Part shown: positions 28,111-28,130 of the stretch, piece after piece | Layout of the letters: every line of letters begins with the position of its first letter | How positions within the stretch are numbered: position 1 is the first letter of the stretch | NCBI RefSeq assembly: GCF_030013205.1 | Contig: NZ_CP122648.1 | Strand: one strand, 5' to 3' | Length of the DNA: 64,000 bases | Source: Escherichia coli | GTDB taxonomy: Bacteria; Pseudomonadota; Gammaproteobacteria; Enterobacterales; Enterobacteriaceae | Notes under the pieces: model-generated | What the model was told of the DNA's origin: nothing | What the model saw: only the letters and a program-made list of their open reading frames with translations | Database searches by the model: none | Program-made: the position numbers and the translations under genes

Positions 28111-28130
28111 TTAGGATTTTGTTATTTAAA
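28111..28130 (+). promoter_or_regulatory. gad box (GadE/GadX-dependent activation site) upstream of gadB
   Basis: Exact 20-bp match to the gad box consensus TTAGGATTTTGTTATTTAAA, about 80 bp upstream of the gadB ATG. Confidence 0.65.

Follow-up and report, generated by a model that had tools for sequence, protein, structure and literature searches.

The sequence TTAGGATTTTGTTATTTAAA, which we read directly on the + strand at positions 28111–28130 of a 64,000-nucleotide stretch of Escherichia coli DNA (contig NZ_CP122648.1; hereafter the window), raises the question of whether the gadBC operon is served here by a canonical GAD box and, if so, which regulators act through it. The initial annotation had described these 20 bp as an exact gad box consensus lying upstream of gadB. 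Both parts of that description were borne out. All 20 positions agree with the box of K-12 gadB, with that of K-12 gadA and with the 20 bases of the characterised GadE site printed as TTAGGAttTTgTTATTTAAa by Seo et al. 2015 (PMC4918353), and the ATG of gadB stands 79 bp 3′ of the box, a distance that is identical in gadA. On both strands of the window, this is the sole match to the sequence at up to three mismatches, a stringency at which 100 dinucleotide-preserving shuffles of the window gave a mean of 0.01 matches; from per-site probabilities, the exact 20-mer would be expected ~1e-7 to 1e-6 times per 128,000 positions. The box is 80% A+T and lies within an A+T-rich intergenic region. Little can nevertheless be learned from an exact match to the consensus, since the consensus is in essence what the gadA and gadB promoters have in common and since the same exact box is carried by 98.9% of complete E. 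coli genomes.

The position of the box relative to the other promoter elements follows the arrangement described for K-12. Castanie-Cornet et al. 2010 defined the GAD box as a 20-bp element whose centre is 63 bp 5′ of the transcription start sites (TSSs) of gadA and gadBC and which is followed, after 16 bp, by the −35 element (PMC2887963). In the window, the box ends at 28130 and the −35 element TTGCTT (28147–28152, +) starts at 28147, leaving a gap of exactly 16 bp. A 17-bp spacer separates this hexamer from the −10 element TACTTT (28170–28175, +), which is a weak consensus match, is preceded by a C and is invariant in the 12 promoters that we aligned. Directly 5′ of the −10 element is the RcsB box CGATAAATCC (28160–28169, +; the right edge is approximate), a low-affinity, repressing RcsB site that was assigned from the literature and from the comparison with gadA. 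Its gadA counterpart is GGATAAATCC, with G rather than C as the first base, in line with the statement that the gadA RcsB box is kept in gadB save for a left-end G to C change (PMC2887963). Eight of its 10 columns are invariant among the Escherichia gad promoters aligned.

The TSS was carried over from the K-12 literature through sequence identity and is placed at 28182–28184 (+), 26–28 nt upstream of the ATG. Positions 28183–28184 follow from the box being centred 63 bp upstream of the TSS (PMC2887963), and 28182 follows from the centre of the GadE ChIP-exo peak standing at −62.5; a 2024 paper on CsrA gives no explicit coordinate for the gadB TSS. With the TSS so transferred from K-12, the box centre falls at −62.5 for a start at 28183 and at −61.5 for a start at 28182, and the box spans −72 to −53 in the former case. 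Downstream, the Shine-Dalgarno sequence AAGGAG (28198–28203, +) is invariant in the cross-species promoter alignment and precedes an intact gadB (28210–29610, +), which encodes the 466-residue glutamate decarboxylase B with no amino acid difference from K-12 GadB and is annotated as gadB in NZ_CP062203.1. It is followed by an intact gadC (29766–31301, +), which encodes the 511-residue glutamate/GABA antiporter with two substitutions relative to K-12 and is co-transcribed with gadB (PMC2887963, PMC4918353).

Upstream, the gene order yddB (22636–25008), pqqL (25053–27848), gadB, gadC and digH is the same as in K-12. An intrinsic terminator (27855–27884, +) with a 10-bp G+C-rich stem, a 5-nt loop and the tail AUUUU follows pqqL; its predicted stability is −18.6 kcal/mol (z = −4.97), and none of 200 shuffles was equally stable. 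This hairpin is predicted to insulate the gadBC promoter from upstream transcription, and its strength argues that gadBC has a promoter region of its own. The gadB core promoter escaped a generic sigma-70 scan of 27800–28300, as TACTTT agrees with TATAAT at only three of six bases. We did not retain this miss as evidence against the promoter, as one that depends on an activator and also uses sigma-S is expected to have weak hexamers; the weak −10 element and the C before it would fit such a promoter, read by sigma-S besides sigma-70. The assignments of the −35 and −10 elements rest on the literature and on conservation.

A comparison with the gadA promoter, which the initial annotation had proposed as a check, was run without gaps, with the gadB promoter of the window and that of K-12 gadA anchored at the ATG. 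The two promoters share the same geometry, and their identity is confined to discrete elements: 13 of 48 positions upstream of the box, 20 of 20 in the box, 2 of 16 in the spacer downstream of it, and 6 of 6 in each of the −35 and −10 hexamers. The GAD box is a discrete conserved block between diverged flanks, that is, a phylogenetic footprint. The same block is nearly universal in the species. A 30-mer made of the box and its gadB-specific 5′ flank had an exact match in 5,365 of 5,426 complete E. coli genomes, and a match to the 412 bp around the site was present in 5,405 of them. When a 50-mer was searched, the median was two places per E. coli genome, one at gadB and one at gadA. In the E. 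coli genome collection, records classed as plasmids account for six matches to the gadB promoter region.

Across species, the exact 20-mer occurs at 11 loci among 100,044 genomes, one per species. Eight of these loci are in Escherichia (E. coli lineages, E. albertii, E. whittamii and E. sp. E1V33), and all eight boxes are equidistant from the start codon of a gadA-type (MDQKLL...) or gadB-type (MDKKQV...) gene. The three remaining matches, in metagenome-assembled genomes of Lentisphaeria and Bacteroidales, were set aside as unrelated: no gad gene is nearby, and 0.5 to 16 such matches are expected by chance per 298 Gb, depending on G+C content. In the cross-species alignment of Escherichia gad promoters, the flanks fall to ~45% identity; the loci in it were picked by an exact box match, so that the invariance of the box there holds by construction and is no independent proof. 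The representatives of E. albertii and E. whittamii each have one exact GAD box, before a gadA-type gene, as opposed to two in the E. coli lineages; the second gad paralogue in these two species may be absent or may have a variant box.

The box has been studied experimentally in K-12. On the gadA box, GadE alone neither binds nor protects the DNA; the RcsB/GadE heterodimer binds it in vitro with an apparent constant of ~10 nM, RcsB and GadE together leave a DNase I footprint from −76 to −50, and neither the complexes nor the activation by GadE survives a G-to-C change in the box (PMC2887963). For gadBC itself, ChIP-exo located a K-12 GadE peak at 1570144–1570175, −62.5 from the TSS (Supplementary Table 1 of PMC4918353); this peak was flagged as causal, activating and RpoS-associated, and its signal-to-noise ratio was modest, at 2.78. 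The same study reported that deletion of gadE lowered gadB expression at pH 5.5 from 2532 to 29 FPKM (log2 −6.44, ~87-fold) and that of gadC by a log2 of −5.85 (PMC4918353). The window equivalent of this peak, P3, was mapped via the gadB ATG from the older MG1655 coordinates to 28104–28135 (+), a span that roughly matches the gadA footprint and includes the variable dinucleotide 28131–28132. For this mapping we used a shift of ~1976 bp, which we take to be the offset between the MG1655 coordinate versions; it agrees with the stated TSS distance of −62.5, and the gadA peak maps consistently in the same way.

We are thus highly confident that 28111–28130 is the GAD box of the gadBC promoter, an activator site centred ~62–63 bp upstream of the TSS, and nothing in the sequence was found to argue against this identity. 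The initial annotation had gone further, to a functional GadE-dependent promoter, and this reading is supported, with one refinement. The sequence and its geometry do fit an activator-dependent promoter, but the dependence would be on RcsB and GadE together, and "GadE-dependent" should therefore read "RcsB/GadE-dependent", as the heterodimer is the binding species. The biochemistry of the heterodimer is that of gadA, and we infer, by extension to gadB, that the box has the same function in this strain.

Could gadA and gadB share the 20-mer through gene duplication, gene conversion or a chance match in A+T-rich DNA, with no selection for a binding site? The coding sequences of the two genes are 97% identical (1359/1401), so conversion does act on the pair, and the base composition of the box and of its surroundings would make a chance match easier. 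The identity, however, is an island between unrelated flanks, which a conversion tract would not give, and conversion was rejected as its cause. The box also shows 0% divergence between E. coli lineages while the distal region 27939–28095 diverges by 10–16%, which speaks against conversion and chance alike, as does the published mutagenesis, by which the box is needed for activation (PMC2887963); the number of matches expected by chance is in any case negligible. We regard the probability of this explanation as vanishingly small. The proposal of some older reports that the 20-mer is primarily a site for the AraC-type regulators GadX and GadW, rather than for GadE and RcsB, is extremely unlikely as well. 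A review-style source states that GadW and GadX can repress by competitive binding to gad box sequences (PMC6128205), but in the K-12 ChIP-exo data the GadX peaks for gadBC are at −184, −225 and +66, away from the GadE peak at −62.5, and the loss of GadX changes gadB less than 2-fold, as against the ~87-fold drop without gadE (PMC4918353). The GadX/GadW motif AKGKCTGWTWTTWWYMYVAK likewise matches elsewhere and not at the GAD box: its single match in the window, where 0.42 would be expected by chance, is AGGTCTGATTTTTACGTGAT at 27963–27982 (+), with one mismatch, at about −220 to −201, where the K-12 GadX peaks at −184 and −225 adjoin.

A different objection accepts the box and supposes that the promoter is not activated by GadE in this strain, either because a trans factor (GadE or RcsB) or a component of the circuit is missing or defective, or because the base at 28132, two bases 3′ of the box, weakens heterodimer binding by its change from A to C. 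Isolates of E. coli that are gad-negative do exist, and gadE and rcsB both lie outside the window; we therefore read them in K_EC180 (NZ_CP062203.1), a swine isolate that serves as a near-clonal proxy. The window is collinear with this chromosome and 99.89% identical to it, with nine differences in 1–62,600 and complete identity over 19,046–49,251, and several swine ETEC/O139 chromosomes match the 412 bp around the site with 100% identity. In K_EC180, the acid fitness island is complete, with gadA and its exact box, gadX, gadW, mdtEF, gadE, hdeD and hdeAB; its GadE protein is 100% identical to that of K-12, and rcsB, rcsC and rcsD are annotated as intact. The window itself holds ydeP, safA and ydeO, of the EvgA-YdeO-GadE circuit that drives gadE, at ~12995–16555 on the same strand, ~12 kb upstream of gadB, which weighs against a missing circuit. 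As for 28132, it does fall inside the part of the window that corresponds to the DNase I and ChIP-exo footprints, and it is the only base that separates the window from K-12 between −87 and the ATG. The dinucleotide 28131–28132, however, is CC here, AC in ATCC 25922 and CA in K-12, and an exact 50-mer with the C allele is present in 457 genome records; because of this variation, 28132 is apparently unconstrained and would mark the 3′ edge of the conserved block. The spacer downstream of the box varies further in other Escherichia species, and the sequence from −49 to the ATG is identical in all three lineages (the window, K-12 and ATCC 25922). On this evidence, a promoter that has kept its box and lost its activation by GadE seems very unlikely, and an active RcsB/GadE-dependent promoter is the reading that we retain.

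Upstream of the conserved promoter, the picture is one of variation. The distal region 27939–28095 (−244 to −88), in which the GadX ChIP-exo peaks of K-12 fall, is unusually polymorphic within E. coli: it diverges by 10.2% from K-12 and by 14.0% from ATCC 25922, as compared with 1.5–2.3% for pqqL and gadB and 0.9–1.8% for the proximal promoter. Within this otherwise variable stretch, an island of 32 bp that carries the GadX/GadW motif (27961–27992) is invariant in the three lineages. Of 5,406 records compared over the 216 bp from 27885 to 28100, 485 showed an identity to the window of at least 95% and 1,419 one of 80–90%. One could imagine that the distal module bound by GadX, GadW and H-NS occurs in a small number of deeply diverged haplotypes, which tune gadBC by lineage while the box and the core promoter stay fixed, and that 28131–28132, as part of this, could modulate the affinity of the heterodimer; we consider this unlikely.

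In our proposed mechanism, the EvgA-YdeO-GadE and GadX/GadW/RpoS circuits would bring about the synthesis of GadE in stationary phase or in mild acid, and GadE would pair with basal, unphosphorylated RcsB. The RcsB/GadE heterodimer, bound at the asymmetric 20-bp box, would then activate the weak core promoter (TTGCTT, 17-bp spacer, TACTTT), which would be read by both sigma-70 and sigma-S RNA polymerase, and GadB (glutamate decarboxylase) and GadC (glutamate/GABA antiporter) would both be encoded by the resulting transcript. Under strong activation of the Rcs system, the low-affinity RcsB box that abuts the −10 element would mediate repression.

Several features elsewhere in the window were also noted. 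An IS1 element (~21262–22028; transposase coding sequence 21276–21973, −) splits the ABC transporter gene yddA into 20137–21261 and 22029–22598, ~6 kb upstream of gadB; these coordinates were transferred from K_EC180, which is identical there. The comparison with K_EC180 showed six single-base indels, in which the base is missing in K_EC180, and one substitution (positions 8317, 16619, 19045, 56261, 57182, 57327 and 49252). Several of these differences are in K_EC180 genes annotated as "frameshifted" or "internal stop", namely a fimbrial usher gene, ydeM, the gene of an LRR protein and fdnH, and these pseudogene calls may be assembly errors of the proxy that are not real in this strain. From 62600 to 64000, ~64 substitutions in 1.4 kb relative to K_EC180 are found inside an IS91-family element beside a truncated narZ, which is probably represented here by another copy or variant. 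At ~53855–54955, between yddG and the LRR gene, is a full-length porin gene annotated as "ompC" in K_EC180, whose genuine ompC adjoins rcsD elsewhere; the locus probably corresponds, in intact form, to the yddL-type porin locus of K-12. An Rfam scan of the whole window gave no match near the GAD box, and its sole match was SECIS_3 within fdnG (51843–51901, −; 84.3 bits).

The feature is already known: it is the orthologue of a well-characterised site that is found in nearly all E. coli, and it adds nothing on gad regulation. Its value lies in annotation, in that this strain keeps an intact glutamate-dependent acid-resistance operon with a canonical activator site; judged from its sequence, the strain is probably acid-resistant in the usual way.

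Among known systems, the orthologous site is the GAD box of the K-12 gadBC promoter, reportedly described by Castanie-Cornet and Foster in 2001 and by Ma et al. in 2003. The two have the same 20 bp at the same distances, 16 bp to the −35 element and 79 bp to the ATG, and the −35 element, RcsB box, −10 element, leader, Shine-Dalgarno sequence and GadB protein are all identical. The 361-bp intergenic regions differ at 17 positions, 28132 (C here, A in K-12) and 16 SNPs between −88 and −244, none of them in the box. The K-12 gadA promoter shares with the window's gadB promoter the 20 bp, the geometry and the −35 and −10 hexamers, but its flanks are unrelated (13/48 and 2/16), the first base of its RcsB box is G rather than C, and its GadX/GadW sites are much nearer the promoter than those of gadB. 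The genome-wide GadE ChIP-exo motif TTARGAWWWWAAATA, drawn from hdeA, hdeD, gadE, yhiM and others (PMC4918353), has in common with the box the left half TTAGGA and an A/T-rich tract. Other members of the GadE regulon carry degenerate versions, the full 20-mer being confined to gadA and gadBC; in the acid fitness island, the best other match has five mismatches to the 20-mer. Finally, the GAD box is similar in its left half to an RcsB half-site (PMC2887963) of the RcsB and RcsAB boxes, which are sites for NarL/FixJ-type response regulators. The GAD box differs from the RcsB box in being asymmetric and in needing GadE, whereas RcsB alone binds at 28160–28169 and not at the GAD box.
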